A DNA stretch of 64,000 nucleotides, from assembly GCA_947176385.1 (NCBI GenBank), contig CAMWQN010000002.1, forward strand, positions 8,245 through 72,244, in the 5' to 3' direction. Every line of letters begins with the position of its first letter. Position 1 is the first letter of the stretch. Positions 2,578 to 55,639 of this stretch are shown one piece after another. The DNA is from an uncultured Rickettsiales bacterium. GTDB taxonomy: Bacteria > Pseudomonadota > Alphaproteobacteria > Rs-D84. Position numbers and translations under genes: made by a program. The notes below the pieces were generated by a model that did no database searches, was not told the origin of the DNA, and was given only the letters and a program-made list of their open reading frames with translations.

Positions 2578-3690
2578 ATGCTAAATATACGTTTTCGCAA
2601 CCAGACAAACACATGGCCGGGCTTTGTTGACCTGTTTTCAAATTTGGTTATCATTTTGATATTCTTGTTAATTGTGTTTGTATTTCTGTGGACAACAACC
2701 AGCGTATTTAACAAAAGCACCGGTGCAAAAACCGTTGCGGAATTAAAGCAAACAAATGCTGCCCAGGCTGAAAAAATCGAACAAATGGTCGCAGACGAAG
2801 AAGAAGCAAAACGTCTGTTAATCCTGGCACGCAAAGAACTGGAAAATCTGGAAACAAACAACGCAGCACTGAACACAGAAATCCAAGAAATGGATTTAAG
2901 TATCGAAGATTTGATTTCTGCATATGAAACCAAGGTTGTCGAACTGCAAACCCAGGGCACCAATATGCAGCAAACAATCACGGCATTAACCGAACAATTA
3001 AACCAGGCAAAATTGGATAAACAGCGTGCATCCGAATTGGAACAGGAACGCAAGCAATTACAGGATGAAATGAACACCCAGCGAATGGCACTGTCTGACC
3101 AACTGGCAAAATTGCAAGCGGCATTGGATGCAGCCGAAGAAAAATCCCGCAACCAAGAAGTTGAATATGTCGAAATGTCAACACGCCTGAACAAGGCATT
3201 GGCGGACAAGGTTGCAGAATTAAACAACATGTCAAAATATCAGTCGGCATTCTACAAGGCTATCAAAGAAGCATTGGGCGACAACAGCGCCATTAAACAA
3301 GAAGGCGACCGCTTCGTATTGCCCAGTGATATTTTGTTCAGCAGTGGTTCATACACCATTTCACCCGAGGGTAAAAATCAACTGCGCATGATTGCGAATG
3401 TTATCAAGAATCTGGAAAGCGAAATTCCATCTGACGTCAAATGGATTATCCGTGTTGATGGGCACACAGATTCCAAGGCGGTAATCCCAGGCACACGTGG
3501 ATACAGAAACAATTTGCAATTATCATTATTGCGTGCAACCGCAGTTGTTGATGAATTGGCACGTGCGGGCGTCAATCGCAACCGTATGTTACCCAGTGGA
3601 TTTGGCGACCTGCATCCATATGCACCAGGCAACACGCCAGCAGATTTGCAAAAGAATCGACGCATAGAATTACAATTAACCAATCTGTAA
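2578..3690 (+). CDS. MotB/OmpA-like protein with a long coiled-coil linker
   Basis: N-terminal plug/TM region is WPGFVDLFSNLVIILIFLLIVF, with Asp preceding the TM as in MotB. A Q/E/L-rich coiled coil of about 200 aa follows. The C-terminal OmpA-like peptidoglycan-binding motif is RVDGHTD..NLQLSLLRA..NRRIELQ. Confidence 0.75.
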   Translation: MLNIRFRNQTNTWPGFVDLFSNLVIILIFLLIVFVFLWTTTSVFNKSTGAKTVAELKQTNAAQAEKIEQMVADEEEAKRLLILARKELENLETNNAALNTEIQEMDLSIEDLISAYETKVVELQTQGTNMQQTITALTEQLNQAKLDKQRASELEQERKQLQDEMNTQRMALSDQLAKLQAALDAAEEKSRNQEVEYVEMSTRLNKALADKVAELNNMSKYQSAFYKAIKEALGDNSAIKQEGDRFVLPSDILFSSGSYTISPEGKNQLRMIANVIKNLESEIPSDVKWIIRVDGHTDSKAVIPGTRGYRNNLQLSLLRATAVVDELARAGVNRNRMLPSGFGDLHPYAPGNTPADLQKNRRIELQLTNL

Positions 3691-30977: not shown

Positions 30978-31169
30978 CTCTTCTCCTTTCTTGGCAATAT
31001 CAGCGTATTTCAGTGCACCCACAAACACAATAAGAACCAAATACTAAAAAACGCCCCACCTGGGGCGTTTAAATTTTGGTTGCGCACGGCGTGCAAATTT
31101 CGAACTGATTTATTGGAAATAAGACAAAAGATTGATGTGTTAAAAAATCTGCCACTTGTTCAAGTGATT

Positions 31170-34787: not shown

Positions 34788-36752
34788 TCAATCAATATCC
34801 ATATTATACACAGAATACACACTTCCATTATATTCAACATTCAACGCCTTTTTTCTGGATTCTGGTATCATATCACCATATAACACATGATTTCCATATT
34901 GTACTGACAAACTGGGGTGCGTGCGCCAGTCATTATGCAACCATACGGAATATTGTCCAAATCGCATAACCCGACCACAATCAGTCAAACTGTCGGCGCC
35001 ACGCCCATACCCGATTGTCATTAAATTATCCGGACACTTGTTACGTTTACCACTGTTACCATAATTTGTATAATTTATATCATTCCAATACCCAGGTCCA
35101 ACATTCGCGCACTGCGTCGCACGTGCCGTTGCCAAATACGTACCCGCATCACACTTTATCTGACATTCATTAATCGACTGCGGTGCTGTATTATCAGGTG
35201 CACGGTCAGCATAATAATCCGGACAATCTTGACAAGAATTCCCAGACGCATACTGTCCCATCGGACATACGATTTTGCCATCAATACACACAAAATCAGC
35301 TGGACAAACCGTACACACATCACCATCACGAAAATATCCGTCATTACACCGCCAGGGGCAATCGTTACCATCAGGACTGCCTGCACCAATATAAATTGCA
35401 TTTTCCGGTGCATTTGTACATGCTTTATTATACTTAAACCGCATATACTCCCCTAAATGTACAGCATTCGCCAGATATCGACCGACGGTATCTGTCTGAA
35501 CCCAGTAAATATCAGAGCTCCAATATCTATCTCCTTGCCATGGCAAATCTTTAGTATATACGCCATCAGGTGTTTCAAACAACGCCCCCCCTATCCTACA
35601 ATTGGCAGCGTTTGTAATAAGCCCACTAACAGAATATGTAGTCACCCTTAAATTGTCAGCATTAATCAGCCTGTCCTCAGATGGCAATACAGATTCCAGT
35701 ACACCAGCATCAAATTCAGGACACCGAAACATTGTATTATTATTGCAATAATTGGCACCAGTGCACACAGAACACATATTGCCATTCAACCAATATCCAT
35801 CAAAACAATTAATTTGTGTGCTGCCGGCGGGACAAGTTGAATTCTGCGGACAGACATCACACCGATTGACATTCTTATAAAATCCTGAAACACAATCAAA
35901 ATCCGTCACAGATCTGCACGTTGAATTTTCCACAGGACACATTTCGCATACGGCACCATTATCAAAAAAGCCCGGATTACAATTTGGTGGCATACCAGAA
36001 TCGCCCGACGCATACGATAGACATTGACCATCTGAATGCCAGAACAACCCATCCGGACATTTTTGTTCCTTGTGTCCGGGACATACAACACCATCGGGAC
36101 ATGGAACACATTCTGCACCCATTTTATAAAATCCGGGGGCGCAATATTGCATATAATTGCTAATTGTCGCGATACCATCTGGACAATAATATTCACCCGG
36201 ACACTGAAAACAATGGTATGAACTTTTATAATAACCTTCGATACACGTAACAGATGAAATCGTTGAACCAGCGGGACAATGCAATTCAGCCCCACAGTCC
36301 ATACAATACGTACCATTCCAATTATAATACAAATACCCAGCACCACAACTGATTAATTTTTCACCATCACAAACATGCCCAGCACAAGACCGACACATAA
36401 ACCCATCACGAAACCAGCCGTCATCACAATGAAATGTATCGGTCCCACCCACGCATGTTGCATTATTAACACATTGTGAACAAACACCGTTATATAAATA
36501 TGTTCCAGGCATGCACGAAAATTCTGTGGGTCCTGTACATGTGCTGTTTGGTGGGCATGCCAGACATTGGTTATTACCATCTGCATAAAATCCGTCATTA
36601 CAAGAATATGTTTCACCATCACATGTTGCGTTATACATACAGTTGACACAATTACCACCAGATAAATACTGATTCACATCACATGTTGCAGCATTGGCAA
36701 CACCACCTGCGCCCACCAACAACAGTACAACAGAAACCAACAGTCGTATCAT
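34788..36752 (-). CDS. Secreted protein made of furin/VSP-like cysteine-rich repeats
   Basis: Start placed at MIRLLVSVVLLLVGAGGVANA with AAGGGGA RBS. The ORF-track start at 36782 falls inside the leader terminator. Repeats have the form C..G.Y...G.C..CP.NSTC throughout. Confidence 0.8.
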   Translation of the reverse strand: MIRLLVSVVLLLVGAGGVANAATCDVNQYLSGGNCVNCMYNATCDGETYSCNDGFYADGNNQCLACPPNSTCTGPTEFSCMPGTYLYNGVCSQCVNNATCVGGTDTFHCDDGWFRDGFMCRSCAGHVCDGEKLISCGAGYLYYNWNGTYCMDCGAELHCPAGSTISSVTCIEGYYKSSYHCFQCPGEYYCPDGIATISNYMQYCAPGFYKMGAECVPCPDGVVCPGHKEQKCPDGLFWHSDGQCLSYASGDSGMPPNCNPGFFDNGAVCEMCPVENSTCRSVTDFDCVSGFYKNVNRCDVCPQNSTCPAGSTQINCFDGYWLNGNMCSVCTGANYCNNNTMFRCPEFDAGVLESVLPSEDRLINADNLRVTTYSVSGLITNAANCRIGGALFETPDGVYTKDLPWQGDRYWSSDIYWVQTDTVGRYLANAVHLGEYMRFKYNKACTNAPENAIYIGAGSPDGNDCPWRCNDGYFRDGDVCTVCPADFVCIDGKIVCPMGQYASGNSCQDCPDYYADRAPDNTAPQSINECQIKCDAGTYLATARATQCANVGPGYWNDINYTNYGNSGKRNKCPDNLMTIGYGRGADSLTDCGRVMRFGQYSVWLHNDWRTHPSLSVQYGNHVLYGDMIPESRKKALNVEYNGSVYSVYNMDID

Positions 36753-37020
36753 CAAAATCCCCTTGTAAAAAAAGACCGTCATCAGAACACGACGGTCGGG
36801 GTGGTTCGAAAATCATCTTATCATTGATTCTGTCAGTCTTTCGGCGGAACCGTGTTTTATAACCGACAGCCCCCCGACTGAGATAGTCAGGGATAAATAA
36901 CGATACAAAGTCACAGGAAATTATTGGAATAACGATGACCTATGCTTTTGCACCGGATAAGAATAGCCTTCGACAGCCCCGAACCTGTGTCCCCACAAGT
37001 TCGTTTAAATAATAACATAA
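36753..37020 (-). promoter_or_regulatory. Structured 5' leader L4, homologous to 25859-26118
   Basis: P1 is TCGAA/TTCGA. X1:X' is CCCTGACT with AGTCGGGGGG. X2 CCACCCCGACC overlaps the terminator GACCGTC-N10-GACGGTC plus U-tract. Confidence 0.65.
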
Positions 37021-41207: not shown

Positions 41208-44200
41208 CTATATTCCCAAGCGATGTGTTAATTTCATCATGAATATAGATTCGTTTCCATAATCATCACAGTTGTTTGGATTTACACGATAAATAAATCC
41301 CAACGCCCCATCTGTAAACGCGCCAAAATTATGTCGGACGGACCCAGCAAAACGCAATTCGCGCACATCCGGACGCAGGTCAACATCTGCGACATGACTG
41401 TCACGGATAACCAGATCATAATTACCATCGTCACTGCCAACCACATCATACTGGGCAGATGCATATTTCATTGCGCCATGCGATACCGCCAATGGGCGCG
41501 CAACAGATAAACTGATATTTCCCCAATCCAGACCAATACCAAACGCATTTGAATCAACATCTGACATACCCAATATAAAGTCCCCACTTGCGTCCGCACG
41601 CGTTCTGGCAAATGTAGCGCGCGCCGTCAATGCGAATTTATCCCACGGTGCATAACGCATAACTGTATCAATATATGTTGTATCACCCCCGCCCAAATTC
41701 AGCAATCCGCCCGTCTGCGCCCCCAGAATTGTATTTGATTCTGTGGCATGACCAACAGCGGTTGTAAACCCAAACTTATCGCCATGCCACGCCAGGTGCG
41801 ATTGCCCGCCCTGGAACAATCCCAGACGTGCTGGATTAAATTGTGACGTTACGGTCGGGTCATTTTCCAATAAACCTTCGTCTGTTATTTCACCGGAAAA
41901 TACGCGTCCACCAAATGACCAGCGACCATGATTATATATCGCATCAGACACAATTGAATTTGACGCCATTGATAATATTGGATTCGCCATTCCATCAAAG
42001 CGTGACGCGCCATCTGTCAAATAATGCTGATATCCCGCATTCAAATTCCAATTACCACGTGAATAATCAAAACGCAATGCATCCAGTCCTGACAAATTGT
42101 CATTGTATGCACGCGGCGAACGCATCAATGAAAAACCAAAGTTTCCAATCTGAGCACGCTGAACATTATCGTCGCGTGTTTTCAATTCACCCAATACATC
42201 CCCCATATACAAAGCCCGACGTCCCGCGTCACCAGATACCGCAAATTCATTTTGCCACACACGTGGCATGCGCAAACTGCCATCCGAACTTTCCAACACA
42301 TCAAAGAATGGTGCACTGATTTTATCAACAGATGGTCTGAAGGCACTGGACCCGCGGAACATTGTATTTGATGCCGCGCGCCAATATGCATCGCCATTGC
42401 TGGACACAATATCCGTACCATTATAATAATAAACCTTGGTTCCAGGTTTGGTCGCGCGTTCCAAATTTATCAGACCATATCCAAAGACTTCTTTGAACAC
42501 ATCCAAATAATCTTCACCATCTTGCATCCAGCGCACATTATATTCATTTGGTAACACATACATTGATTGTAAATAACTGCGCAAAGAATCCTGGGTTGTA
42601 GCCACACCATTGGTAAATGTTCCCAAATATGGTCCATCCGCCGTCAATGCCAACAATGCAAATACTTGCTTGTTATCCAAATAATCAAATGCAGACTTTA
42701 CCACACCCGCAGCACCTGCGGCACTGGCGACCGCCATTTCTGCATTTACACCCGCTGATGCAAAACACCATGGGTCGATACTGCTGCTGCCACGACCGGC
42801 TGCGCCACAAACGCGTGCGCGATAATATGTATCATCTTCTGTCGTAGTGGTTCCATTGGTATCCGACCACTGTGATAATGCATATTTACCAGATGGTGAA
42901 AATCCAGCAATTGAATCTGTCCCGGATGTACCAGCTGTACCGGTTATACCAACAGCAACCACTGACATAAACAAATGTTCCAAATTCTTAAAAACTAATG
43001 GTGCTGCGTTTTCAAATGTTGCCTCTCTTGTTCTGCCGGTAAAATTACTGTCTGTTTCATATCCACCTGTTGAAAATACCAACAATGGTGTCGTACTGTT
43101 TCCGACCGCAGTAAACAACGTCGCCGCATATGCACTGGGCAAATCATTTGAACCACTGATACCATCACCCTTATCGCGGTCATAATATAAATCAACAAAT
43201 TTTGCAAATTCAGTACGGTAATCACTGGTTTCCGCAGCCAATATATCATCAATTACTTTTGTATCAATTGAATACAACGGCGCAATAACAGATGCATTTG
43301 CCAACACATCCGCTCTGGATCGCCCATTACCGTCTTTATTTAAAGTGGCAGCCAGTGATAAAGCCTGATAGTTATGATAATCAACATTCCCCAATTCGCG
43401 ATTTAATACCAACTGTTTGGTGTCACCAGCAACAACCTGCAAATATGCCACATCCACGGCACCATCTGCATTACTGTCAAAATACAGAAAATTATTTTTT
43501 ATACCGATATATCCAGTATATGTCGGACTGTTGTCACCAGCAGCCTTGGCAGTAAACTTATTACCATCCATTGTCAACGTTAATGTTCCCAGTCCCGGCA
43601 ATGTTATCGTATCACCGGTGGCAAAAGTGTCACTTGCCCTTTCAAATGTACCATTGCGCGCATCATCTGATACTTCTTTGAAGCCCCGTCCACCACCGGT
43701 GCGGAAAATAGTCATTTGACCATTTGGCATAAACCCAACATAGTCAGCATTTGGATATCCCGAAAGACTGCCCCCCAGAACCTTGGCCAGGCGATTATCA
43801 TCATTGCTGGCACTGGCATTTTGAACTGCGGTATTTGATCCGGATAAATCGAACAAATCCACCATATTTGGATCTTCGTACGTTGAATCATCCAACAATG
43901 AATTATTATCCGTACCACGTTTAATCAAATTATTGTAATACTTGCTGGACAGCAGATCATTACTGGCACCATTCAGACTGGTTGAATCATTTAATGTCGT
44001 CCAAACCAACAAAACATCATCCAATGAATCTTTCCCAGCAGAATAATCCCCAGCAGGCTTCATCGCAGCATTTACACCGTTTGCAGTAACCAACGCAACA
44101 TTTGTTGGACGTCCGCCCTGAATATCATATTCGCCCAATGCGCCACTTAATGGAATCGGCGCATTTGAAAATTGATTACGCAATGTACGCATCCCCAGAT

Positions 44201-44906
44201 ACCCACGTGCAAATGGCGAATACCCATGCATCATCAACAGATAGTTTTGTTTGAATGCATTCGACATAAGTTCAAAATTCTGTTTGTAAATCGCTGTAGA
44301 ACTGCTGGGACCATATACTTCCAAGTTTGCAGAATACGATTGCGCTTCGTCTGCCGCGGTTGGCAATGCCGGTCCATAATTCAATGCAAACGCTTCTTTG
44401 CCAAGACCACTTTCACCACCACCGGAATTATCACCACCGATTGGGCGATTTCCTGCCGTCCCGGAATTATCGTTTCCATTGCCAGGGTCAAATACATCCG
44501 TTAATAAAAACAGTCCACCTATAACAACGGCGGCACCCGCCGCCGCCAATGTCAAACTCTGGGCGGATGATAGCCCACCAAACAAACCACCGCTGCCCTT
44601 GGGCTTATTACGACTGTTATAATTCTTTATTTGTCGGTCACAACGCGATGCATCTGCGCCATACATCTGTAAAATCTGGGCAGCACGCATATCATTATTC
44701 ATCAGTGCAGTACAAACCAGTGACAATCCTGTTGAATCGGTATAGTTAACATCTGCCCCGCTGTTTATCAGAATCTGAACCTGTTGAATATCAGCATTTT
44801 TTGCCGCAGACAACAATTGTGCTGCCACCATAAAATCATTAGATGCCGCATGCACCGACAGTGGCGCAAAAAATATCATAAACAACAATAATCTGATGTA
44901 TTTCAT
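41208..44906 (-). CDS. Large envelope protein: signal peptide, ankyrin repeat, glycine-zipper segment, large passenger-like region, C-terminal beta-rich domain
   Basis: The ANK-like segment is NADIQQVQILINSGADVNYTDSTGLSLVCTALMNNDMRAAQILQMYGAD. The glycine-zipper is GGLFGGLSSAQSLTLAAAGAAVVIGGLF. The last ~300 aa show an alternating beta-strand pattern. Confidence 0.7.
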   Translation of the reverse strand: MKYIRLLLFMIFFAPLSVHAASNDFMVAAQLLSAAKNADIQQVQILINSGADVNYTDSTGLSLVCTALMNNDMRAAQILQMYGADASRCDRQIKNYNSRNKPKGSGGLFGGLSSAQSLTLAAAGAAVVIGGLFLLTDVFDPGNGNDNSGTAGNRPIGGDNSGGGESGLGKEAFALNYGPALPTAADEAQSYSANLEVYGPSSSTAIYKQNFELMSNAFKQNYLLMMHGYSPFARGYLGMRTLRNQFSNAPIPLSGALGEYDIQGGRPTNVALVTANGVNAAMKPAGDYSAGKDSLDDVLLVWTTLNDSTSLNGASNDLLSSKYYNNLIKRGTDNNSLLDDSTYEDPNMVDLFDLSGSNTAVQNASASNDDNRLAKVLGGSLSGYPNADYVGFMPNGQMTIFRTGGGRGFKEVSDDARNGTFERASDTFATGDTITLPGLGTLTLTMDGNKFTAKAAGDNSPTYTGYIGIKNNFLYFDSNADGAVDVAYLQVVAGDTKQLVLNRELGNVDYHNYQALSLAATLNKDGNGRSRADVLANASVIAPLYSIDTKVIDDILAAETSDYRTEFAKFVDLYYDRDKGDGISGSNDLPSAYAATLFTAVGNSTTPLLVFSTGGYETDSNFTGRTREATFENAAPLVFKNLEHLFMSVVAVGITGTAGTSGTDSIAGFSPSGKYALSQWSDTNGTTTTEDDTYYRARVCGAAGRGSSSIDPWCFASAGVNAEMAVASAAGAAGVVKSAFDYLDNKQVFALLALTADGPYLGTFTNGVATTQDSLRSYLQSMYVLPNEYNVRWMQDGEDYLDVFKEVFGYGLINLERATKPGTKVYYYNGTDIVSSNGDAYWRAASNTMFRGSSAFRPSVDKISAPFFDVLESSDGSLRMPRVWQNEFAVSGDAGRRALYMGDVLGELKTRDDNVQRAQIGNFGFSLMRSPRAYNDNLSGLDALRFDYSRGNWNLNAGYQHYLTDGASRFDGMANPILSMASNSIVSDAIYNHGRWSFGGRVFSGEITDEGLLENDPTVTSQFNPARLGLFQGGQSHLAWHGDKFGFTTAVGHATESNTILGAQTGGLLNLGGGDTTYIDTVMRYAPWDKFALTARATFARTRADASGDFILGMSDVDSNAFGIGLDWGNISLSVARPLAVSHGAMKYASAQYDVVGSDDGNYDLVIRDSHVADVDLRPDVRELRFAGSVRHNFGAFTDGALGFIYRVNPNNCDDYGNESIFMMKLTHRLGI

Positions 44907-45033
44907 ATTATAAATTCTCTCTTACAGGGATAGTTTAACATACATACAATTTGTATGTCTAGCAAAAAAACAACTATGTGAATACAGCCCGCCAATTGGC
45001 GGGCTGCACTTCTAACAAACAAAGGGGAAAAGA

Positions 45034-45738
45034 TTATTTACAATAACTTTGACGTGTAACGTATGTATTTACAGTCAATTTTGTTTCCGCTGTTGCGACA
45101 ACGCGACGTGTAACAGTCTTGGTTGTATCAGCAGAGTTTGCATTACCATTGTTGCTGATGGTAACTGTGTTATTATTACCATTGATAACAACATTTGCAT
45201 TCTGATCATCACCACAACCGTTTGCGTTTTGTACCGCTGGTGCAACTACTGGTACTTCTTTAACAACAATAACTGTATCAGGTTTTACCGGCGCCGGTAC
45301 ATTATTTGGACGTGTTGGACGTTGTGCAGGCTTTTTTGCTGGCTTTGGGTTAATGCATGGGCATTTTTCCTGACGTTGTGCGATTGTATCAACACGAGCA
45401 GTCAAACTGTCTGTACGCATTTCAACTGTATCAACACGCAATTTCAGACTGTCAATATCTGCACGATGTGCTTCAATGCTGTCCTCTGCCGCACTCATAC
45501 GAGTTTTCAAGTTGTTGATTTCACGCAAATTGCTTGAGATTCTACTTTCATGATTCTCAATCGATTCAATAATTTGATGTTGAACCATACCTAATGTATC
45601 AACTGTTGCTTCGACGCCGTCAACGCGTGCGCTAACCGCTTCGTTACCATTGCAACTTTTGACACTGGCAGCCAACGCAACAACTGCGATAACACCAGCT
45701 GTCAAACCAACATAATGTTTCTTTAACCAATCTTTCAT
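45034..45738 (-). CDS. Membrane-anchored coiled-coil protein with a Pro/Lys-rich linker
   Basis: Start placed at MKDWLKK with AAGGAA RBS; the ORF track begins at 45768. An N-terminal TM segment is followed by heptad-like repeats (RVDTVEMRTDSLTARVDTI). Confidence 0.65.
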   Translation of the reverse strand: MKDWLKKHYVGLTAGVIAVVALAASVKSCNGNEAVSARVDGVEATVDTLGMVQHQIIESIENHESRISSNLREINNLKTRMSAAEDSIEAHRADIDSLKLRVDTVEMRTDSLTARVDTIAQRQEKCPCINPKPAKKPAQRPTRPNNVPAPVKPDTVIVVKEVPVVAPAVQNANGCGDDQNANVVINGNNNTVTISNNGNANSADTTKTVTRRVVATAETKLTVNTYVTRQSYCK

Positions 45739-45892
45739 CTTTATTCCTTTTGTTTGATGACAAGACAAATATAGACAAACAAATGTGTTTTGTCAAGATA
45801 CAAATAATAAAAAATCTAATTTTTTGCCCCGCCCCCTTTTTTTCACTTTTCACGCCATGCGTTTTTTGATATAGTTCTTAGCAAGAGAGAAC

Positions 45893-46759
45893 ATGAAAAA
45901 ACATAACATACTTTTTATAGTCTGCAGTTTCTTGGCAATGTCAACCGCACATGGTGCCCAATCATGCTCGCGTGCGAACCTGACACGATGCCTGGATTCT
46001 GCCTGTGCAATTAACGTCAGTTCAAATCCTGCAGCACGTTGTCAGTATTGTGGTACGGACTCTGCCGGCACACCACCCACCAGTGGGATGCGTAATGTAT
46101 CTGCGGGCGCGTCTGCGAAATACAACCTGACGGACAAGGAATTAAAGAACGCGCCATCTGACCCCGGCAGTCGTTATGCTTGGGCAACTGCGCAATGTAT
46201 TAACAAGGTCACAGGCTGTACCACAGATGATGTATCTGAAGCATACGATTCATTGATTGAACAATCCTGCAAGGCAGCCGGCATCAGTGCACAAATGGCA
46301 ATATTACAAGCCGAAGCACGTAAAAAACCAACTAAAACAGCATGTACGACCAGCATCCGTTCATGCATTGTTGATGCAAAACGCTGTGGCGCAGATTGGC
46401 GCGCATGCCAGACAGATGCAGATTTTGATAAATTCTTTTCCACATGCGGTGTCGAAGCCACTGGTTGCGACACATATATGTCTGCGATACGTACAGAATT
46501 GTCTGGCGCACGTAACAGCGCAATCGCCAGTGCCGCAGCAGCCGTCCAAGGTATCGTAAAGAGTTATCAAAACGCACGTGAAACAAAATTGACCGCGGCA
46601 CGCACATCATGCCACGACAACGCCAGTCGCGATACATGTATTGAAAGTGTATGCGCCAATAATATGCGCAACAATTGCAGCCCAGATTTTCCGGGCGAAC
46701 GCGTAATGGCAACACAATTGTGCAAGTTCTATGAACTGGCATGCAACGTATTAAAATAG
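45893..46759 (+). CDS. Secreted cysteine-rich protein, small divergent member of the large Cys-rich family
   Basis: Signal peptide present. Cys-pair pattern is CSRANLTRCLDSAC.., SIRSCIVDAKRCGADWRAC and DTCIESVC. Confidence 0.75.
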   Translation: MKKHNILFIVCSFLAMSTAHGAQSCSRANLTRCLDSACAINVSSNPAARCQYCGTDSAGTPPTSGMRNVSAGASAKYNLTDKELKNAPSDPGSRYAWATAQCINKVTGCTTDDVSEAYDSLIEQSCKAAGISAQMAILQAEARKKPTKTACTTSIRSCIVDAKRCGADWRACQTDADFDKFFSTCGVEATGCDTYMSAIRTELSGARNSAIASAAAAVQGIVKSYQNARETKLTAARTSCHDNASRDTCIESVCANNMRNNCSPDFPGERVMATQLCKFYELACNVLK

Positions 46760-46785
46760 TACAACCGATAAAAAGCATACTTACA

Positions 46786-48255
46786 ATGACAAACAAAACA
46801 CATTTTAATTTTTACAACAAAATTGCCCATACAGCATTATGTGGCACAATGTTTGTTTTCATTGCATACGGCATTATGCCAGCATCGGCCGCGATTATTG
46901 ACCGAACAACACCTGCAGCGACAACCGCAACAACACCACGCCCGGCATCACAACGCATGCCGACAATGAGTGCAAAATTACCAACGGTCAGCCAGTCCAA
47001 CACCAGCACAAGCAACACAAATACCCAGACCAATAATAATACAAATAACGGAACAAACAATAATACCAGCAATAACAGCACCAATAATTCCGCTGCCACG
47101 ACGAACACAAATGATGCAGCAAACACAATTGCCAACGAAATAATAGAAGACAAAACATCCCAGTTTGATGCGATACTGGAATCGGCAACCACAGGCAGTA
47201 TCGACGCATCGACACAAAGTCTGGCAGATTTAATCCGTGCACAACGTGCGGCACTGGATGCGGCAGCTGCCGAAGAATTCTCTTCTAAAAACACAAAATC
47301 CGCAACCGCAGGACTCAGCACATGCGACAGCGGTCTGCGTGCATGCATGCAGGAAAAATGCGGTCCTAATTTTACGAAATGCAGCGGTGATGGCGACACG
47401 ATTTGGGGTGACAAAATGGACGCATGCCGTCGCGGTGTAACGTGCAGCGGTGAAGAATACAAATTATTTTCTATCGAAATCAAGGCTGACCGTGATCTGA
47501 ATGCTAAATTGGATTCATATCAGAAGATATTAGACTGCGGTAATTCATATAATTCATGTATTGAACAACAATGCGGCGCAACATTTAACAAATGCTTGGG
47601 CAAATCAGCGGGGGACGCCGCAATTGCAAAATGCGCATCAATTGCACGCGATTGCACACAGCAAGACAGTGGTTTAGCCGCCCGCGCAATGGAGGTTTTT
47701 GCGACCCTGCGCCAAGACGCAGAAAAACAAATCAAGAAAGACGAAGCACGCCTGTATGAACTGCGTGATACAATGCGTAGCCGCTGCCAATCATTGGGCG
47801 CATTATTTGACGAACGCAGCCTGGATTGCGTATTTACTGTTGAATTCTGGGCGGGTCAGCCAACAACATCGCTGTATGCATCTAAAAAAGCATACGCTGG
47901 TTCAACATTTGATTGCACGCAAACCTGGTTCGGTGTCGACATAACCACATTCAAAGAAAACGCATATCGTCTGACACGCGAACAAACATCTGCAACATCT
48001 GCATTATTGGGTTCTGGTGTCGGTATGGCGGTTGGCTCAATTACATCTGGCGCAATTGATCGCGCAATCGACAGACACAAGGCTGAACAAGCGGTCAAGA
48101 AAGCAGAAAAAGAAGACAAAGAAGCAGCCAAGGCACGCCAGGCTTCGAATTCAGCTGATAGCGACACATCCAGCCAACAGGAATGCACCACCGACAGTGA
48201 TTGTGGCGATGGCGAAACATGCAACAATCGCGTGTGTAAAAAAAAAATTAACTGA
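46786..48255 (+). CDS. Secreted cysteine-rich protein with Asn/Thr-rich linker and glycine-zipper; ends in an A10 tract
   Basis: Alternative start at 46741. Motifs are CDSGLRACMQEKCGPNFTKC, a glycine-zipper GSGVGMAVGSITSGA, and a C-terminal knot-like ECTTDSDCGDGETCNNRVCKKK. Confidence 0.75.
   Translation: MTNKTHFNFYNKIAHTALCGTMFVFIAYGIMPASAAIIDRTTPAATTATTPRPASQRMPTMSAKLPTVSQSNTSTSNTNTQTNNNTNNGTNNNTSNNSTNNSAATTNTNDAANTIANEIIEDKTSQFDAILESATTGSIDASTQSLADLIRAQRAALDAAAAEEFSSKNTKSATAGLSTCDSGLRACMQEKCGPNFTKCSGDGDTIWGDKMDACRRGVTCSGEEYKLFSIEIKADRDLNAKLDSYQKILDCGNSYNSCIEQQCGATFNKCLGKSAGDAAIAKCASIARDCTQQDSGLAARAMEVFATLRQDAEKQIKKDEARLYELRDTMRSRCQSLGALFDERSLDCVFTVEFWAGQPTTSLYASKKAYAGSTFDCTQTWFGVDITTFKENAYRLTREQTSATSALLGSGVGMAVGSITSGAIDRAIDRHKAEQAVKKAEKEDKEAAKARQASNSADSDTSSQQECTTDSDCGDGETCNNRVCKKKIN
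48238..48247 (+). repeat. Homopolymeric A10 tract at the junction of two ORFs
   Basis: Ten consecutive A residues. Loss of 1 A (or gain of 2) fuses ORF 46786-48255 to the frame of 48239-49045. Confidence 0.95.
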
Positions 48256-49045
48256 CACACATGGCGACACTAATCCCGCAAATGATACCGCTGTAATTCC
48301 ATCATTTAATTCATCCACGCCACAGACGCCGCAATGTACAACAAATTCAGATTGTGGTTCAGAACAAATTTGTGACAATGGTGTATGTAAAAATAAACCT
48401 GCTACAAATCCGCCAGCAACACAAAATGCGGGCAACACATGTTTCACCAAAAACACATCTGGCGCCAAACGCTACATTCCACCCGTCAATACAACAGGAC
48501 GCCGATATTTCTGGATTGGCGACTCACGCATGCAGGGAATGGCCAGGGATGAAATCGTCGGCAACAAACCAAACGAAGGTGTAATTGCCCAAGGCAGCAT
48601 GGGACATTCCTGGTTTCAAGACACTGCAATACCAATGCTCAATAACTGCCTTCATGATGGTGACGTCGTTATTTTAGCAATGGGCGCAAATGATATCGGA
48701 TCTACAAATGAATCTGCCACACGTGGTGCAAATAATTATATCGCAACATATGGCGATTTAATACGGAATCACCCCAACATAACGTTCCGCATTTTATCTG
48801 TTAATCCAGTACAAGAGCAACTTGCTAAACAAAGTGGCTATAAATTAACTAATACACTAATAACAAAATTTAATAACACATTACAAAGTGCTTTAAATCA
48901 ATACTGGATTGACACATACACACCAACCCTGCCAATGATAACAGCATTGACAGCAGGCGACGGTTTGCATTATGCAGGTGGAAAAAAAAGCAATAAAATC
49001 GAAAACAAAATCTATGATACAGTTATGTCATCAATAGGTGGATAA
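48239..49045 (+). CDS. SGNH/GDSL-type hydrolase domain ORF with no start of its own; continuation of the upstream ORF in the +1 frame
   Basis: It repeats the knot motif QCTTNSDCGSEQICDNGVCKNK. It then carries GDS (FWIGDSRMQG), GANDIG and DGLHY (DxxH) blocks. There is no in-frame ATG before the GDS block downstream of the upstream stop. Confidence 0.6.
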   Translation, partial: KKKLTDTHGDTNPANDTAVIPSFNSSTPQTPQCTTNSDCGSEQICDNGVCKNKPATNPPATQNAGNTCFTKNTSGAKRYIPPVNTTGRRYFWIGDSRMQGMARDEIVGNKPNEGVIAQGSMGHSWFQDTAIPMLNNCLHDGDVVILAMGANDIGSTNESATRGANNYIATYGDLIRNHPNITFRILSVNPVQEQLAKQSGYKLTNTLITKFNNTLQSALNQYWIDTYTPTLPMITALTAGDGLHYAGGKKSNKIENKIYDTVMSSIGG

Positions 49046-49143
49046 AATTTATCAATTTTGGTAAACAATCACCCCATTTTACATTGCCACGCCATGGACT
49101 TTTATGATATACTGATACATACAAATAGAAGGGACATTTTCGT

Positions 49144-52100
49144 ATGAAAAAATTATTATCAGTACTATTCGCAATAATTATCACCCTGCCCGCGTTGGCA
49201 ATGGATGTCAGTATCACTATTATTGATGAAAACAATGAACCATTGATTGGTGCCTCTGTCATCGTGGCAAACACACAAAATGGTGTAGTCACCGATACAG
49301 CGGGTCACGCAACTTTACGAAATATCCCAGACGACTCATCTATACGTATCAGCTATGTTGGATACCAAGAACAAACATTGCCAGCACAATCAACAATGTC
49401 TGTCAAAATGGAACCAACCACTCTGAATTTAGAAAGTGTAGTAGTAGTCGCATGTTCCCGTGCCAACGGTATAAAAACAACTAAGTGCGAAAACTGTGCC
49501 GATCCTGACAAATGTACCATCGACAGCTGCTCGGGTACATGTGTTGTACAGGAATGCCATGAACCATGCTACAAGAAAAAAGGTAACAAATGCGAAATGC
49601 AAAGTGTTACTGGTGGTACATTTACATTCATAAACAATCAATGCGGATTAACCTGTTTATCAATTGCAGGTTATGCCCAAGATCCAAAGAATCAATGGAA
49701 ATGTACACAAGATTGCACATCATCCATTACCGACCCAAATGTAAAGAAGGCACAATACAAAGGAAGCATAACACCAAACAACCTAAAATGCGAAATTATT
49801 GATTGCAAGGGTAAATATCATCCATCTGATGACAAACAAAGTTGCATCCCAGACCAAGGCGATTGCACCCCTGAACAATTGCAAGCCGTGCATGCCACCA
49901 CCGGATATTTAATCACCAGGACCAATAAATGTGTTCCAAAGGAATGTATCCAACCACAATACAGACCAGATGGCAAAGGCGATGACCGCGTATGCGTTGA
50001 CATGGTTGGCACAGCATGCAATGTAAAAAATGCGACCAGTGCAAAATTCGCAGTCCGTGATAATAAATTGATATGTGTTGTTGATACATGCGACACTGCC
50101 AATGGTTATGTAAAATCTGCTGATAGCTTATCATGCATCAAAGACTGCCTGAGTACTATCAAGGAAAAAGTTCCACTGGCAAGCGCTGCCGAATACGACA
50201 GCACTGGTAAGTGTGTAATTAAAAAATGCGATAAAAAGAATGGTAAAAAATACATCCCCAGTGATGATGGTCAAGATTGTGAAGAAACCGAACGTGATTG
50301 CAATAAACAAACCGACAGCCAAATCTGGCCGGAACATGCAACCGCCGCATTATACAAGAAATCAAAAACAGGTGGCACTGCAAAATGCGTTGCAACAGAT
50401 TGTGAACCAGGATACAAACCAGTCAAAGGACAATGTGTCAATCAGGTCGGACAACCATGTAAAGTATCACATGCCAAAGAAGCCAAATTTGAACTGCGTG
50501 ACAATAAATTGGTATGCGTAGTCGTATCATGCGACACCGCCAAGGGTTACACAAAAACCGCGGACGGTTTGGAATGTATCAAAGACTGTCTGTCAACAGC
50601 GAAAAACAAAGAACCCCTGGCAACCAAGGCTGAGTTCGACAGCAACGGTAAATGCATAATCAAAAAGTGTGATAAAAAGGATGGTAAAAAATACATCCCC
50701 AGTGATGACGGTCAAAAATGTGAAGAAACCGAACGTGACTGCAATAAACAAACCGACAGCAACATATGGCCGGAACACGCAACCGCCGCAGCATACAAAA
50801 AATCAAAAACGGGTGGTGCTGCAAAATGTGTCGCAACAGAATGTGAAGACGGCTATGACGTTGAGGGTGGTAAATGCACATCTGTAAATGATTCAGACTG
50901 TGATAAAAAACCTGAAAATTCAAAAAAATCACATCGTTACTATGACGTCAGCCAGCAACAAACATTGTGCATCATCGACGAATGCAAGGATGGATATAAA
51001 ATCAGCAACGACATGCTGTCATGCATACTGGAATCTGCATTAAGCGAAGAAGATGCAAAAAAACGTATGGATGAATTAAAAGAAAACGCCCTGAAAATGA
51101 AAGAAAAAGAACAGTCTATTGAAAATAAACTGTTGGGCGCCGCTGGTATGGCAACGGTTGGTATTGGCGGAATGAATATCGCATCTGCCCTGTCTGAACA
51201 AAGCGCTGACCGCAAAGCAGAAGATGATATGAAAGCATATCTGGCAACATTCCGCTGTGACTATGGTCAGGGTCGCAATATCCTGGGTGGTGAAACAAAT
51301 ATTCAATTACCAGGTGCCAGCGAATTGATGCAATACACAACCGAATATAAACAATTGGCATTAAACCTGAAATCTGACAAAGCCGCATTGGGAATGATGC
51401 CGGGCATTGAATCAGAAACCGTATTTGATTCTGCAACAACTGGTCTTTATGATGATGTTGGTATCGGCACACAGAAAGGTGCATTTACATCATTGTCACG
51501 TGCCCTCTTGGATGAAAATGGCGCTGACGCCGCCGAATGGCAGGCAATGAAAGACGCCACCGCAAAAAAATTAAAGACCGGTGTAATTGTTGCTGGTGCG
51601 GGCGCATTGGGAACATTGGCGGGCAACCTGGCTATCAATCATGGCAATGGTGACCAATCCGCTAATATAATGAACCAATACGAAGGCTTACAGGAAGATA
51701 TTCCAGACATCACACTGCCACGCATACCATGTTCTAATTTCCCAGATACAACTGGTGTTGGTTATGTACCAAACTGTGAATGCAAAACCCCAAATTCATA
51801 CTTTGATGAACAGACTCGCAAATGTGAACAATGCGGTACAAATGAACACGTCGAAAACAAACAATGCGTATGCAACGACGGCTTCCACCGTGATGCAAAC
51901 AGTGGCAACTGCATTGCAAATCAACCGGAACAAACCTGTCAGAATTTGCCAGCCGGCAGTGGCGCAACAGGTTCAGGCAATTTCCCAAATTGTGATTGCA
52001 AAGATCAAAATGCAACATTTGATAAACAATCATTGAAATGCAAATGCAAGGACGGATTTTCAAATCCAAATGGGGGTCAATGCCTGCAAATATGCGCAGG

Positions 52101-52854
52101 GTTACCTGGGGTCGATAACAGTCGGGCATCCAATTATAACGTGCCGCAGTGCCCATGTGAATACGATGGCGCAAAATTTGACCCGTCACAAAAAGCCTGC
52201 CTTTGCCCACAAGGTCAAACACCAGCCATTGAAAACGGTCAGAAAAAATGTATCACACCGTTAACAGGTACACAATGTGATACAATCCCTGGTGCAACAG
52301 GCACAATTGTTCCGAACTGCACATGCACTGACCCCAACAAACAATTTATCAAGAAACAAGGAAAATATGGCTGTCACTGCAAATCTGGTATGCGTGAAGA
52401 TGAATCTGGCAACTGCGTCAGTGGCAGTGATCCTGTATTCTCAGGTAACTTTAGCGCGAATGAAACATTTGACCTAGGCAAATCCGAAATCAGTGACAAC
52501 AGATGCACACAAATCATAAATAAAATTAAGACAGATTCTAGATATGATGCAAACATATCTGGCACATTATGTATCAGTGCAATCGGTCATACTGACACAA
52601 AATACTTCAAAAACACCCCTAAAAAAGAAGCAATCAATAAACAAAAGAATCAAGAACTGTCAAAAGACCGCGCTCAGGCAATGCATGATTGCATCAACAG
52701 AAATATCCGCAGTTTGTTCCCAAGAGCGACAGTCACCAGTCCAAATGTCGTCGGCAAGGGTTGGCAAGAATGCGTGGTACAAGACTTAGATAAAGATACC
52801 CCATCATGTCGCAGGGTAGAAGTAAAAATCCAACTGAACAGTTGCCATAACTAA
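49144..52854 (+). CDS. 1236-aa mosaic envelope protein: CarboxypepD_reg-like N-domain, Cys-rich repeats, coiled coil, glycine zippers, EGF/furin-like repeats, OmpA-like C-domain
   Basis: The N-terminal region is IIDENNEPLIGASVIVANTQNGVVTDTAGHATLRNIP..IRISYVGYQEQTL. The C-terminal region is AIGHTD..N.ELSKDRAQAM...CRRVEVKI. Confidence 0.8.
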   Translation: MKKLLSVLFAIIITLPALAMDVSITIIDENNEPLIGASVIVANTQNGVVTDTAGHATLRNIPDDSSIRISYVGYQEQTLPAQSTMSVKMEPTTLNLESVVVVACSRANGIKTTKCENCADPDKCTIDSCSGTCVVQECHEPCYKKKGNKCEMQSVTGGTFTFINNQCGLTCLSIAGYAQDPKNQWKCTQDCTSSITDPNVKKAQYKGSITPNNLKCEIIDCKGKYHPSDDKQSCIPDQGDCTPEQLQAVHATTGYLITRTNKCVPKECIQPQYRPDGKGDDRVCVDMVGTACNVKNATSAKFAVRDNKLICVVDTCDTANGYVKSADSLSCIKDCLSTIKEKVPLASAAEYDSTGKCVIKKCDKKNGKKYIPSDDGQDCEETERDCNKQTDSQIWPEHATAALYKKSKTGGTAKCVATDCEPGYKPVKGQCVNQVGQPCKVSHAKEAKFELRDNKLVCVVVSCDTAKGYTKTADGLECIKDCLSTAKNKEPLATKAEFDSNGKCIIKKCDKKDGKKYIPSDDGQKCEETERDCNKQTDSNIWPEHATAAAYKKSKTGGAAKCVATECEDGYDVEGGKCTSVNDSDCDKKPENSKKSHRYYDVSQQQTLCIIDECKDGYKISNDMLSCILESALSEEDAKKRMDELKENALKMKEKEQSIENKLLGAAGMATVGIGGMNIASALSEQSADRKAEDDMKAYLATFRCDYGQGRNILGGETNIQLPGASELMQYTTEYKQLALNLKSDKAALGMMPGIESETVFDSATTGLYDDVGIGTQKGAFTSLSRALLDENGADAAEWQAMKDATAKKLKTGVIVAGAGALGTLAGNLAINHGNGDQSANIMNQYEGLQEDIPDITLPRIPCSNFPDTTGVGYVPNCECKTPNSYFDEQTRKCEQCGTNEHVENKQCVCNDGFHRDANSGNCIANQPEQTCQNLPAGSGATGSGNFPNCDCKDQNATFDKQSLKCKCKDGFSNPNGGQCLQICAGLPGVDNSRASNYNVPQCPCEYDGAKFDPSQKACLCPQGQTPAIENGQKKCITPLTGTQCDTIPGATGTIVPNCTCTDPNKQFIKKQGKYGCHCKSGMREDESGNCVSGSDPVFSGNFSANETFDLGKSEISDNRCTQIINKIKTDSRYDANISGTLCISAIGHTDTKYFKNTPKKEAINKQKNQELSKDRAQAMHDCINRNIRSLFPRATVTSPNVVGKGWQECVVQDLDKDTPSCRRVEVKIQLNSCHN
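49993..50874 (+). repeat. Two tandem 441-bp (147-aa) intragenic repeats
   Basis: Unit 1 starts at CVDMVGTACNV (49993) and unit 2 at CVNQVGQPCKV (50434). Long stretches are near-identical at DNA level, for example around KKYIPSDDGQ.CEETERDCNKQTDS. Confidence 0.9.
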
Positions 52855-53413: not shown

Positions 53414-55639
53414 TTACTGTGCGGTTGTATCAGAATTATCCTTGTTAGAATCATCGGATGCGTCTTGTGGTACACACGCCCCATATGATTTTGCAACTGG
53501 ATAGTTTTCAATACATACGCTGCCCGATGGGATACATGCCGCATGAATCAATGTTATTGCTGGCGCACCCGCTGGTTTGTAATTTATCTGGGCAGATTTG
53601 CACTGTTCCAAATCTGTTATTTCAGCGCATGCACGACGCCATGAATTACAATCAACAACCATCGCCGTTGGTGCGACATTTTCCGGCAGACGCAGGTTCC
53701 ATTTTACATAGAAATCACGCAGACTGCCAATTGACATCGATTTGCCATATCCAATCTGATCCAAACCATCACCCAGGCGGCAATTGATATTATTCTTTTC
53801 AACAAATGCCGTTATCGCTGTTGCCAAACCACCGGTACCCGCACCAATCGCAGCACCGGTCAATGTTGTCTTTACACGATTGTTTTTATCACCCTTGGAA
53901 ATAACATCGCCAACACCTGATAACGCCTGTTTTAAGCGATTAACATCAGAATCAATACGGTCAACAGACCAACAATCCGGACCACATTCCTGCTTGGTGC
54001 ATCCATTCAGACAGTAAATATCATCACCAAAGACAAATGCCTGATTTATCGGTTTAAAGAAACAACGCAAATCTGTACCATCTGCTGTCAGACCAAGTTT
54101 GTTCAGTTGATTGGTCGCGATTTGCTTTCCTTTTTCTAACAGTGCATTGTTCAATTCATTCATACATTCTTCTGCATTGCCAGTATTTTCACAAATAGCC
54201 ACAGCATCAATATCTGTTACAGCAACACCACGACTATCAACCAGTTTCAGATTTTCTCTGCACGTCGCCCAATCTGCTGCTTCAGTTATATCGATATTAT
54301 TATCAGAAACTTCGCATTTCACAGTGACAGATAAACTAACATCTGATATTGCGCCACCTGTACCCTTACATCTGTTCAATGCAGTCTGCAACTGATTATA
54401 TTTGTCATACAAATTGACAATTTCACGACACTGGGATTCTGTCATATTATTCGCAGATGCTTCCATTGTTGCATCACGATTGACCAAAAATTCATTCATC
54501 ACACCGACATTACGTTTTTCTTTTAATAATTTCATCAAACGTTCACGATGATCAGAATTACCGCAATCAAAATCACGGTCGCCATGTCCTGCCAATGCAC
54601 CAATACCGGCACCGACCAATGTTCCACCGCCAATACCAACCACTGCAACAGTGTTTGTATTTTTATACAGTGAAAATCCAAACAGGTCTTTGTTACATGT
54701 AAATGTACTGCCTGCGCGTTCCCATGCCTCTGCCAATCTGTCGTCACCGACAGCACCAAACAACCAACTGTTTTTAATTGGTGTATCTTTGTTATACGCC
54801 GCAACACGGATATGACATTCGGCGGTTGTTGCATCCCAACGTGCATAGTGCCCACGTCCACCATCAACGCCATCATTGCCATTGTTTAATGTTGCGCCCT
54901 GTGGATTCTTCTTGATAATATTGGCACCACCCTGCCCGTTATATGCACCAACACGGTTGTTATATTCGTATGTTGTAACACCGGAATTTGCAACCGCATC
55001 AAATGATTTGCCATAGGTATTCTTGTCCAACAACCAGCATGTATTTTCTGCCTGACGTGGTGTTAATCCTGTCTTGCGCAGGACAAAACTGTAATATTCT
55101 GGTTGCACCTTGCGTGCGTTAAAGTCAATCCATACATCAGCGGATGAATGATATATATTTTCGCAATCGCGGCGAACTTCGGCAATGCAGCGTTCAACCT
55201 GGGCAGAACACAATCCCATACCATTTATAATGGAATTACGCAGTTCTTCATTGAACATATCGTTTATGCCATTTGGTAATGCGCCATTATTAACACATGC
55301 AAATACGTCACGCATACAGTTATCAACCGTATATTCAGAATTCTTGACACCACCATCCGGGCATTCTGGGGTCGGTTCATCCGGTGTATCTGGGGTATCC
55401 GGTGTATTCGGCACAGTTGGGGTCGGCTGTGTTGGCAAATCAACCGTCATATTACCTGTCGTATTGATTGGCAATGTCGGCATTGACGGCATACGTTGCG
55501 TACCCGACAACCCTGCACGGTTCATACGATTAACATTATATGCAGCGCGTCCAGATTCTGCGGCACCTGCCACCCCAAATACACACATAGCCGCAATACT
55601 CGCCACGGGTAAACCAAACATTTTCAGCCGATTTTGCAT
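53414..55639 (-). CDS. Large secreted cysteine-rich protein, divergent family member (741 aa)
   Basis: Signal peptide and a Pro/Thr linker. Cys pairs are NCMRDVFAC and LCSAQVERCIAEVRRDC. There are two glycine-zipper segments and a Cys-rich C-terminus. Confidence 0.8.
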   Translation of the reverse strand: MQNRLKMFGLPVASIAAMCVFGVAGAAESGRAAYNVNRMNRAGLSGTQRMPSMPTLPINTTGNMTVDLPTQPTPTVPNTPDTPDTPDEPTPECPDGGVKNSEYTVDNCMRDVFACVNNGALPNGINDMFNEELRNSIINGMGLCSAQVERCIAEVRRDCENIYHSSADVWIDFNARKVQPEYYSFVLRKTGLTPRQAENTCWLLDKNTYGKSFDAVANSGVTTYEYNNRVGAYNGQGGANIIKKNPQGATLNNGNDGVDGGRGHYARWDATTAECHIRVAAYNKDTPIKNSWLFGAVGDDRLAEAWERAGSTFTCNKDLFGFSLYKNTNTVAVVGIGGGTLVGAGIGALAGHGDRDFDCGNSDHRERLMKLLKEKRNVGVMNEFLVNRDATMEASANNMTESQCREIVNLYDKYNQLQTALNRCKGTGGAISDVSLSVTVKCEVSDNNIDITEAADWATCRENLKLVDSRGVAVTDIDAVAICENTGNAEECMNELNNALLEKGKQIATNQLNKLGLTADGTDLRCFFKPINQAFVFGDDIYCLNGCTKQECGPDCWSVDRIDSDVNRLKQALSGVGDVISKGDKNNRVKTTLTGAAIGAGTGGLATAITAFVEKNNINCRLGDGLDQIGYGKSMSIGSLRDFYVKWNLRLPENVAPTAMVVDCNSWRRACAEITDLEQCKSAQINYKPAGAPAITLIHAACIPSGSVCIENYPVAKSYGACVPQDASDDSNKDNSDTTAQ

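Follow-up and report, generated by a model that had tools for sequence, protein, structure and literature searches.

We describe here a run of ten adenines (A10) that stands at the junction of two reading frames in the DNA of an uncultured Rickettsiales bacterium. The tract lies at positions 48238-48247 (plus strand) of a 64,000-nucleotide stretch of contig CAMWQN010000002.1, which was analysed as a whole and is called the window below. It separates the 3' end of an open reading frame (ORF) for a Cys-rich scaffold protein, predicted to be secreted, from an open frame, shifted by +1, that encodes an SGNH/GDSL-type esterase domain. We propose that A10 is a conserved slippage (recoding) site at this domain junction, from which a short and a long protein would be made, and we give this proposal about an even chance of being correct. 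The slippage would most likely be that of RNA polymerase; by analogy with known systems we infer both that it acts at the RNA level and how often it may occur. The order Rs-D84, to which the bacterium belongs, consists of gut Alphaproteobacteria with genomes of about 0.9 Mb (PMC12306168).

Results

The upstream ORF (46786-48255, plus strand; MTNK..., 489 amino acids), which would give the short isoform, is 100% identical to the GenBank protein K2M34_03135 (P0001), whose source is a metagenome-assembled genome (MAG) labelled 'Alphaproteobacteria bacterium'. The tract is the longest homopolymer of the window and is read as AAA AAA AAA A in frame 0, in which the ORF ends ECTTDSDCGDGETCNNRVC-KKK-IN-TGA, with the stop two codons past the tract. 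Read in the +1 frame, the DNA gives KKK-LTDTHGD... and stays open for 265 codons, up to a TAA stop at 49043-49045. Translation of altered tracts showed that the loss of one A gives a single ORF of 753 amino acids and the gain of two A an ORF of 754 amino acids, close to the 755 or so codons claimed in the original prediction for this DNA. One inserted A leads the frame directly into a TAA at 48249-48251, and frame 0 meets its TGA at 48253-48255. Because these two neighbouring stops (48249-48255, plus strand) close both unproductive frames, every outcome that does not fuse the two parts terminates one to two codons past A10. From the upstream stop to the GDS block of the esterase domain the +1 frame contains no ATG, as had been predicted, and no GTG or TTG either. 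The other structural claims of the original prediction also held: the position of A10 between a Cys-rich ORF and an SGNH frame, the NNRVC-KKK-IN-stop end of ORF 46786-48255, the translated +1 continuation to 49045, the repetition of a knot motif past the tract, and a complete SGNH domain with GDS, GAND and DGLHY blocks.

The knot motif occurs once on each side of the tract and in different frames. Cys-knot module 1 (ECTTDSDCGDGETCNNRVC, 48181-48237, plus strand, frame 0) abuts the tract; it weakly matches, below threshold, the Pfam Dumpy DPY module (E=0.0039) and the Cys-rich repeat TIGR04201 (E=0.0046). Past the tract, the +1 frame encodes a linker (LTDTHGDTNPANDTAVIPSFNSSTPQTP, 48248-48331, plus strand), which has neither a start codon nor a hydrophobic stretch, and then Cys-knot module 2 (QCTTNSDCGSEQICDNGVC, 48332-48388, plus strand), which duplicates knot 1: when the upstream tail was searched by tblastn against the +1 frame past the tract, the match had E=5e-5. 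The AlphaFold2 (AF2) model shows knot 2 as a small beta-hairpin with a predicted local distance difference test score (pLDDT) of about 80. A knot that is duplicated across the tract, once in frame 0 and once in the +1 frame, is what is expected for one polypeptide with tandem repeats.

The SGNH/GDSL-type esterase domain occupies 48440-49045 (plus strand, including the stop codon) and was identified by alignment, AF2 and Foldseek. Its catalytic blocks lie on the plus strand at 48518-48526 (GDS), 48683-48694 (GAND) and 48959-48970 (DGLH). In an 11-sequence alignment, G104, D105 and S106 of block I (FWIGDSR), G132 of block II, G159-D162 (GAND) of block III and H254 of block V are invariant; Asp251 of block V is present in the window and in the related contig L001 described below (DGLH), and is replaced by Glu in some relatives and by Ala in one. 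The core of the domain was modelled with pLDDT values of 85-95. Foldseek matched the model to PDB entries with a probability of 1.0, namely to 2hsj, to the Bacteroides/Phocaeicola vulgatus sialate O-acetylesterases 6xpg and 7pzh and to acetylxylan esterases, and the C-terminal domain of OatA was also matched. The target-normalised template modelling score was 0.63-0.71 to 2hsj, 6xpg and 7pzh. The window domain shares the fold of these enzymes and all four blocks (GDS, G, GxND, DxxH), but is only 14-21% identical to them. The Pfam gathering scores were not reached (25.7 against 32.9 bits for PF13472, 17.5 against 23.6 bits for PF00657), and the family profile matched 2hsj at E=1.7e-8 in hmmsearch; the domain is therefore a divergent SGNH member. 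On the evidence of the alignment, the model and the profile, the downstream frame encodes a genuine SGNH hydrolase fold. Its activity is likely to be O-deacetylation of a glycan or of peptidoglycan in the cell envelope. In the searches made here the small SGNH subfamily to which the domain belongs was found only in Enterousia-like gut Alphaproteobacteria, and its homologues in genome contigs are all from Candidatus Enterousia MAGs. An A8 run at 48982-48989 lies in frame inside the SGNH ORF (GGKKSNK).

The same cassette is carried by L001, an independent metagenome contig (Logan SRR13282573). At the DNA level, L001 and the window share 85.6% identity in the flanks and 81.9% over 48208-49160. 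Its A10 tract (7312-7321) is in the same place and in the same +1 relationship, so that tract length, compared in this related lineage, is A10 in both copies (n=2), which would be the off length if the locus were phase-variable. The stop follows two codons past the tract in both sequences (AGT AAA TGA in L001, ATT AAC TGA in the window), and the TAA of the third frame is likewise present in L001 (AGTAAATGA), though two of the nine post-tract bases differ. Both of these substitutions spare both out-of-frame stops, for which the chance probability is about 0.08 and thus only suggestive. L001 also has an extra knot inserted upstream of the tract. Between the window and L001, the ratio of nonsynonymous to synonymous substitution rates (dN/dS) is 0.064 at dS 0.80 for the scaffold ORF, 0.19 at dS 0.46 for the SGNH part and 0.58 for the linker with knot 2. 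Past the tract every indel is a multiple of three in length, and the 265 codons are open in both sequences. Taken together, these data demonstrate that the downstream frame is under purifying selection. The stored gene call at 4855-7329 of L001 reads through a TAG between the preceding 288-amino-acid ORF and the scaffold ORF to give an 824-amino-acid product; because translation shows a stop there, this looks like a gene-calling artefact and not a stop-codon reassignment.

In GenBank the SGNH frame is annotated as a protein of 278 amino acids, K2M34_03140 (P0121), which starts at an ATG at 48209-48211 (plus strand): MAKHATIACVKKK. This ATG is in the +1 frame and lies inside the upstream ORF, 47 nt before its stop and within the codons GAT GGC (Asp-Gly) of knot 1. 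Independent initiation would give the N-terminal peptide MAKHATIACVK, and a fusion would give the junction peptides DGETCNNRVCKKKLT (Asp-N) and DGETCNNRVCKKK(K)LT. The stand-alone SGNH homologues (P0123-P0136, and open frames in four Candidatus Enterousia contigs, L002-L005) all have a hydrophobic signal peptide of their own, and the maximum 11-residue Kyte-Doolittle score is 1.6-2.8 in almost all of them. The corresponding scores of the ATG-started products are 0.62 (window) and 1.23 (L001), and in neither product is there a hydrophobic stretch ahead of the SGNH domain. No Shine-Dalgarno (SD)-like motif precedes ATG 48209, and no promoter-like or terminator-like plus-strand site was found within 48000-49045. 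A promoter-like site for the next gene (TTGCCA-18-TATACT with TG, 49084-49113, plus strand; gene start at 49144) marks the end of the transcription unit that contains A10. Because only the upstream signal peptide could export the SGNH part, its export needs the fusion, and an esterase of secreted type that carries a disulfide knot and conserved Cys makes biological sense only when exported. In our view a fusion in some form is far more likely than independent initiation.

The tract itself was compared with the codon usage and the other homopolymers of the window. AAA is used over AAG at about 2.7:1, and four of 11 KKK tripeptides are written entirely in AAA, against 4.4 expected. KKK codons were also examined for a deficit of A9 that would point to selection; the numbers were small and gave no signal. 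No homopolymer besides A10 interrupts a frame in the window or in the fetched loci, where A9 at 20559-20567 and the A8 runs are in frame. A10 alone is within chance for an A-rich genome, whereas the conserved frame break exceeds chance. The A9 at 20559-20567 lies in frame within an SLT-domain gene (20135-21859), and both it and the A8 in the SGNH ORF are potential secondary slippage spots, at which slippage would truncate the products. No Rfam match was found at the A10 locus. A hairpin at 48196-48231 (-14.8 kcal/mol, z = -2.2) ends 6 nt before A10; it is not a conserved stimulator, because L001 folds differently there, but as a nascent-RNA hairpin it could modulate slippage in the window strain.

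In the upstream ORF a signal peptide and a T/N-rich linker precede the Cys-rich helical core, which is followed by a Gly-rich hydrophobic segment, then by a charged helix and last by a variable tail. The predicted signal peptide (residues 1-36, 46786-46893, plus strand) has the hydrophobic core ALCGTMFVFIAYGIMPASAA, with a maximum 11-residue Kyte-Doolittle score of 2.27 at residue 17, and the AF2 model shows an N-terminal helix at residues 7-27. The Cys-rich core was modelled as helical with pLDDT above 90; no PDB fold match was found for the model, and Pfam and NCBIfam searches for the identity of the family gave sub-threshold repeat matches only. The family alignment defines the Gly-rich hydrophobic segment (SALLGSGVGMAVGSITSGAI, 47992-48057, plus strand) as near-invariant, with G409, G411, G413, G417, S421, G422, A423 and I424 invariant. 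The model gives this segment a low pLDDT; it may be a membrane segment of the glycine-zipper type. The scaffold family comprises more than 866 metagenomic homologues of 440-940 amino acids, which share the N-terminal architecture and have fully variable tails: low-complexity Gly/Ser or Pro/Glu runs, Cys knots, unknown domains and, in P0048, an OmpA domain. Two members with Lys-run C-termini, P0087 (CVKKRKNKQ) and P0116 (CVRKKKEQNNR), have no hidden downstream frame; their genes simply end and the next gene follows.

The tail of the window copy is a cassette (48141-49075, plus strand) that contains a linker, knot 1, A10, the second linker, knot 2 and the SGNH domain. Its borders are blastn homology breakpoints of the window against L001 and two further contigs, L010 and L011. 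The flanking DNA of L010 is 87.6% identical to the window, but its tail (3159-3493) is non-homologous and Pro/Glu/Gln-rich, and is followed by a terminator hairpin; about 48141-49075 of the window is therefore a strain-variable cassette. Even strains whose flanks are about 87% identical differ in this hypervariable scaffold tail, as if cassettes were replaced at fixed breakpoints. A search for further strains with the cassette, by SGNH profile scans of genome and metagenome contigs, returned only stand-alone homologues that bear signal peptides. Look-ups via the neighbouring 288-amino-acid gene led to L010, with its different tail, and to L011-L020, from an 81%-related species, without SGNH; contig L021 ends before the tail, so that the tail is not covered there.

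The scaffold gene belongs to a five-gene cluster (41208-52854 of the window) that is syntenic in many Enterousia-like contigs (L001 and L007-L020). Two minus-strand genes encode a protein of about 1230 amino acids with an Ank-like N-terminus (1232 in the window) and a coiled-coil protein of about 240 amino acids (244 in the window). The three plus-strand genes encode the 288-amino-acid Cys-rich protein, the scaffold family protein and a protein of about 1236 amino acids with CarboxypepD_reg and OmpA-like parts (49144-52854). In L007-L020 the scaffold gene simply ends, the next gene follows and there is no SGNH domain. The 288-amino-acid family has more than 747 metagenomic homologues, and neither it nor the scaffold family has a Pfam model. 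The cluster may encode an uncharacterised envelope structure. The downstream 1236-amino-acid protein has many Cys-rich repeats and an OmpA-like C-terminus, as well as a Gly-rich hydrophobic segment with a charged helix behind it (LLGAAGMATVGIGGMNIASALSEQSADRKAEDD). This stretch is similar to the invariant segment of the scaffold family, and a principle of membrane anchoring may be common to the two proteins.

Elsewhere in the window, two large minus-strand proteins (23096-25858 and 28386-31040) have C-terminal autotransporter beta-domains (PF03797, E=2e-18 and 2e-29), which makes the organism a diderm that displays passengers at its surface. Five large ORFs (5746-8208, 8243-10411, 10854-13328, 34788-36782 and 53414-55639) have no Pfam match. 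ARAGORN called a tRNA-Ser (anticodon ACT) at 14617-14695 on the minus strand, inside ORF 14149-14814; at the gathering score Rfam does not support this call, a probable false positive.

Discussion

We propose the following course of events at the A10 tract. Ordinary decoding would yield the 489-amino-acid secreted Cys-rich scaffold as the major product. In a minority of transcripts RNA polymerase would realign on the 10-bp rA:dT hybrid and leave A9 or A12 in the mRNA, which would then be translated normally into the +1 frame. The minor product would be a scaffold-knot-SGNH isoform of 753 or 754 amino acids, with the same signal peptide and scaffold plus the second Cys-knot and the SGNH esterase, and the ratio of short to long protein would be set by the frequency of slippage. 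Only these two protein species would arise, because both other frames stop within two codons of the tract. Runs of 9-10 A suffice for a context-free realignment of the RNA:DNA hybrid (PMC5009743), and the tract, with ten, is above the minimum of nine used to recognise sites of RNA polymerase slippage. The transition is also conserved, as judged from two sequences: L001 shares the frame break, with a dN/dS of 0.19 in the SGNH part. The slippage-dependent SGNH extension foreseen in the original prediction is thus partly supported, by the recurrence of A10 and the frame break in L001 and by purifying selection. Its claim that the downstream product can only be made as a fusion was overstated, since ATG 48209 is an annotated start; the fusion that it favoured is supported, as the ATG product has no signal peptide of its own.

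Several observations weigh against this proposal. The arrangement of A10, frame break and SGNH domain is known from two sequences only, the window and L001. A profile search for an in-frame fusion of the scaffold family with the SGNH subfamily found none in 1.84 billion representative proteins, so that the fused architecture is without independent precedent. ATG 48209 is in frame and is conserved in the window and L001, a conservation explained by the DGETC motif of the knot, which is itself conserved and contains the codons GAT GGC. The A-run is kept uninterrupted, yet this is not significant given the AAA codon bias. No significant or conserved stimulatory RNA structure flanks A10 (z-scores of -2.2 in the window and -0.9 in L001). 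In dnaX, slippage by RNA polymerase mostly adds single nucleotides, in a diminishing series (PMC5009743), and the fusion here needs one A less or two A more; the fused fraction may be low, because one added A gives the short product only.

The same tract could act at the level of DNA. Slipped-strand mispairing during replication would switch A10 (off, short protein) to A9 or A12 (on, fusion) and back, and so create heritable subpopulations for a surface-exposed protein. We regard phase variation of this kind as a serious rival, less likely than RNA polymerase slippage but more probable than the other alternatives below. It would also account for the purifying selection on the downstream frame, and the locus, a homopolymer in the coding region of an exported envelope protein with a strain-variable tail, fits the profile of a contingency locus (PMC3711429). 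Genomes in this lineage are reduced, at about 0.9 Mb (PMC12306168), and repair capacity might be limited there; neither the 64-kb window nor the Enterousia paper yielded information on mismatch repair. Both independent assemblies are, however, at the off length A10 (weak evidence with n=2), and searches with fused and SGNH queries found no in-frame A9 allele in 5.8 billion clustered proteins, as in the 1.84 billion representatives. Phase variation and RNA polymerase slippage could coexist; they are not exclusive, because an A10 would slip in RNA polymerase regardless. We find it distinctly improbable that the two frames are separate overlapping genes, as in GenBank, with the 278-amino-acid protein made from ATG 48209 and A10 an incidental run of Lys codons. 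The ATG is present in both lineages and is chosen by gene callers, the missing SD is not decisive since about half of the window genes have no clear one, and the selection on the SGNH part is explained equally well by two genes. Such a product would nonetheless lack the signal peptide that all stand-alone homologues have, and would leave a disulfide knot and conserved Cys residues in the cytoplasm; its start would be an out-of-frame reading of a Cys-knot whose DGETC codons already account for the ATG; the post-tract knot duplicates the tail module before the tract; and an overlap of 47 nt is atypical.

Long homopolymers are error-prone on several sequencing platforms, and if the true tract were A9 or A12 the locus would be one ordinary gene for about 753 amino acids. 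The original prediction had allowed for this, but two independent assemblies from different samples, with diverged flanks, agree on A10, both out-of-frame stops past the tract are retained, and no other homopolymer breaks a frame in the 64-kb window or the other loci, so that a sequencing or assembly indel is now a very unlikely explanation. At least as unlikely is a +1 frameshift or sliding of the ribosome on the Lys run of a faithful A10 mRNA. The tRNA-Lys can re-pair perfectly anywhere along the run, and poly-A/T stretches are slippery for ribosomes as for polymerases (PMC3711429), but no slow or stop codon would occupy the A site (the run is followed by AUU, in L001 by AGU, with the stop two codons away), the 40 nt upstream contain no SD-like motif, and there is no conserved structure downstream. 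Two specific forms of ribosomal shift were rejected: a programmed -1 frameshift of the dnaX or insertion sequence (IS) type (A AAA AAR) would meet the TAA at 48249-48251 directly, and the features of a prfB-type +1 frameshift, an A-site stop or slow codon and an SD-like stimulator, are absent. Decay of the SGNH part after a mutation broke a formerly fused gene would agree with the broken frame, and GenBank calls both parts hypothetical proteins. The original prediction had named degraded SGNH motifs in relatives as the mark of such a pseudogene; the catalytic blocks are instead intact in both lineages, 265 codons are open in A/T-rich sequence, the indels are all in frame and dN/dS is 0.19 at dS 0.46, while a cassette identity of 82% argues against recent recombinants that share one cassette. 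A pseudogene is essentially excluded.

The closest proven case to the proposed slippage at A10 is tssM1 of Citrobacter rodentium, in which A11 precedes a premature stop and the loss of one A restores the full-length frame (PMC4256274, Gueguen et al. 2014). Transcriptional frameshifting there reaches 20-25%, and two length variants are made, both of which are required (PMC4256274). Like tssM1 (and tssM3 of Yersinia pseudotuberculosis), the window locus has an A-run just before a stop in an envelope gene and a C-terminal domain in another frame without its own start, and short and long variants would be expected. In tssM, however, the long form is canonical and widely conserved and the break is lineage-specific, whereas the window gene has no in-frame counterpart and its appended part is an enzyme in a strain-variable cassette; the tssM case was proven by experiment, and the window case is known from sequence analysis. 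In dnaX, Thermus uses A9 (PMC3711429) and the two-ORF genes use A10 (PMC5009743). These genes share with the window locus a common N-terminus with two C-termini, a run of at least nine A and, in the two-ORF genes, an A10 conserved across species. The protein family and cell compartment differ, and slippage in Thermus thermophilus dnaX yields the shorter (gamma) product from a full-length ORF, whereas in the window it would yield the longer one. Poly(A)-tract frameshifts maintained in the reduced endosymbiont genomes of Buchnera and Blochmannia are cited in PMC5009743. There, as in the window, the genome is reduced and A-rich, the frameshift is retained between lineages and the downstream frame is selected, and rescue by polymerase infidelity would apply; in those endosymbionts, ordinary housekeeping genes are interrupted and the breaks are seen as tolerated or rescued lesions. 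The window tract differs in its position, precisely on the boundary between two modules, and in the stops that close both other frames; this looks like isoform production. The poly-A tract of the phase-variable surface protein p78 of Mycoplasma fermentans, cited in PMC3711429, is likewise part of a coding region, in a small genome, for a protein that is exported or surface-located. Phase-variable tracts usually differ in length among isolates, whereas both copies of the window type are A10 and in the off frame (n=2).

By analogy with the short-to-long ratio of TssM1, A10 might even be a selected dosing device within the variable cassette, an idea that we offer tentatively and think less probable than slippage as such. 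RNA polymerase slippage would then fix a sub-stoichiometric proportion of the esterase isoform to the bare scaffold, which is probably oligomeric and glycine-zipper anchored, and a formerly stand-alone secreted enzyme would be grafted onto the structure, but not onto every subunit.

If slippage at A10 is true, it would be a chromosomal, non-IS, non-housekeeping example of productive bacterial poly(A) slippage. Productive poly(A) slippage that gives two length variants is known already; what would be unusual here is that the appended part is a formerly autonomous secreted enzyme in a strain-variable cassette. The recoding would thus join two evolutionarily separate modules, a scaffold and an esterase, and would not repair or split an old gene. 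The analysis also flags a mis-annotation, as GenBank has two 'hypothetical proteins' here, one of them from an implausible start. Finally, it points to a five-gene envelope cluster, conserved and with a hypervariable tail, in a gut lineage that is uncultured and has a reduced genome, and the scaffold family appears to be confined to genome-reduced gut Alphaproteobacteria of the Rs-D84/Enterousia group.

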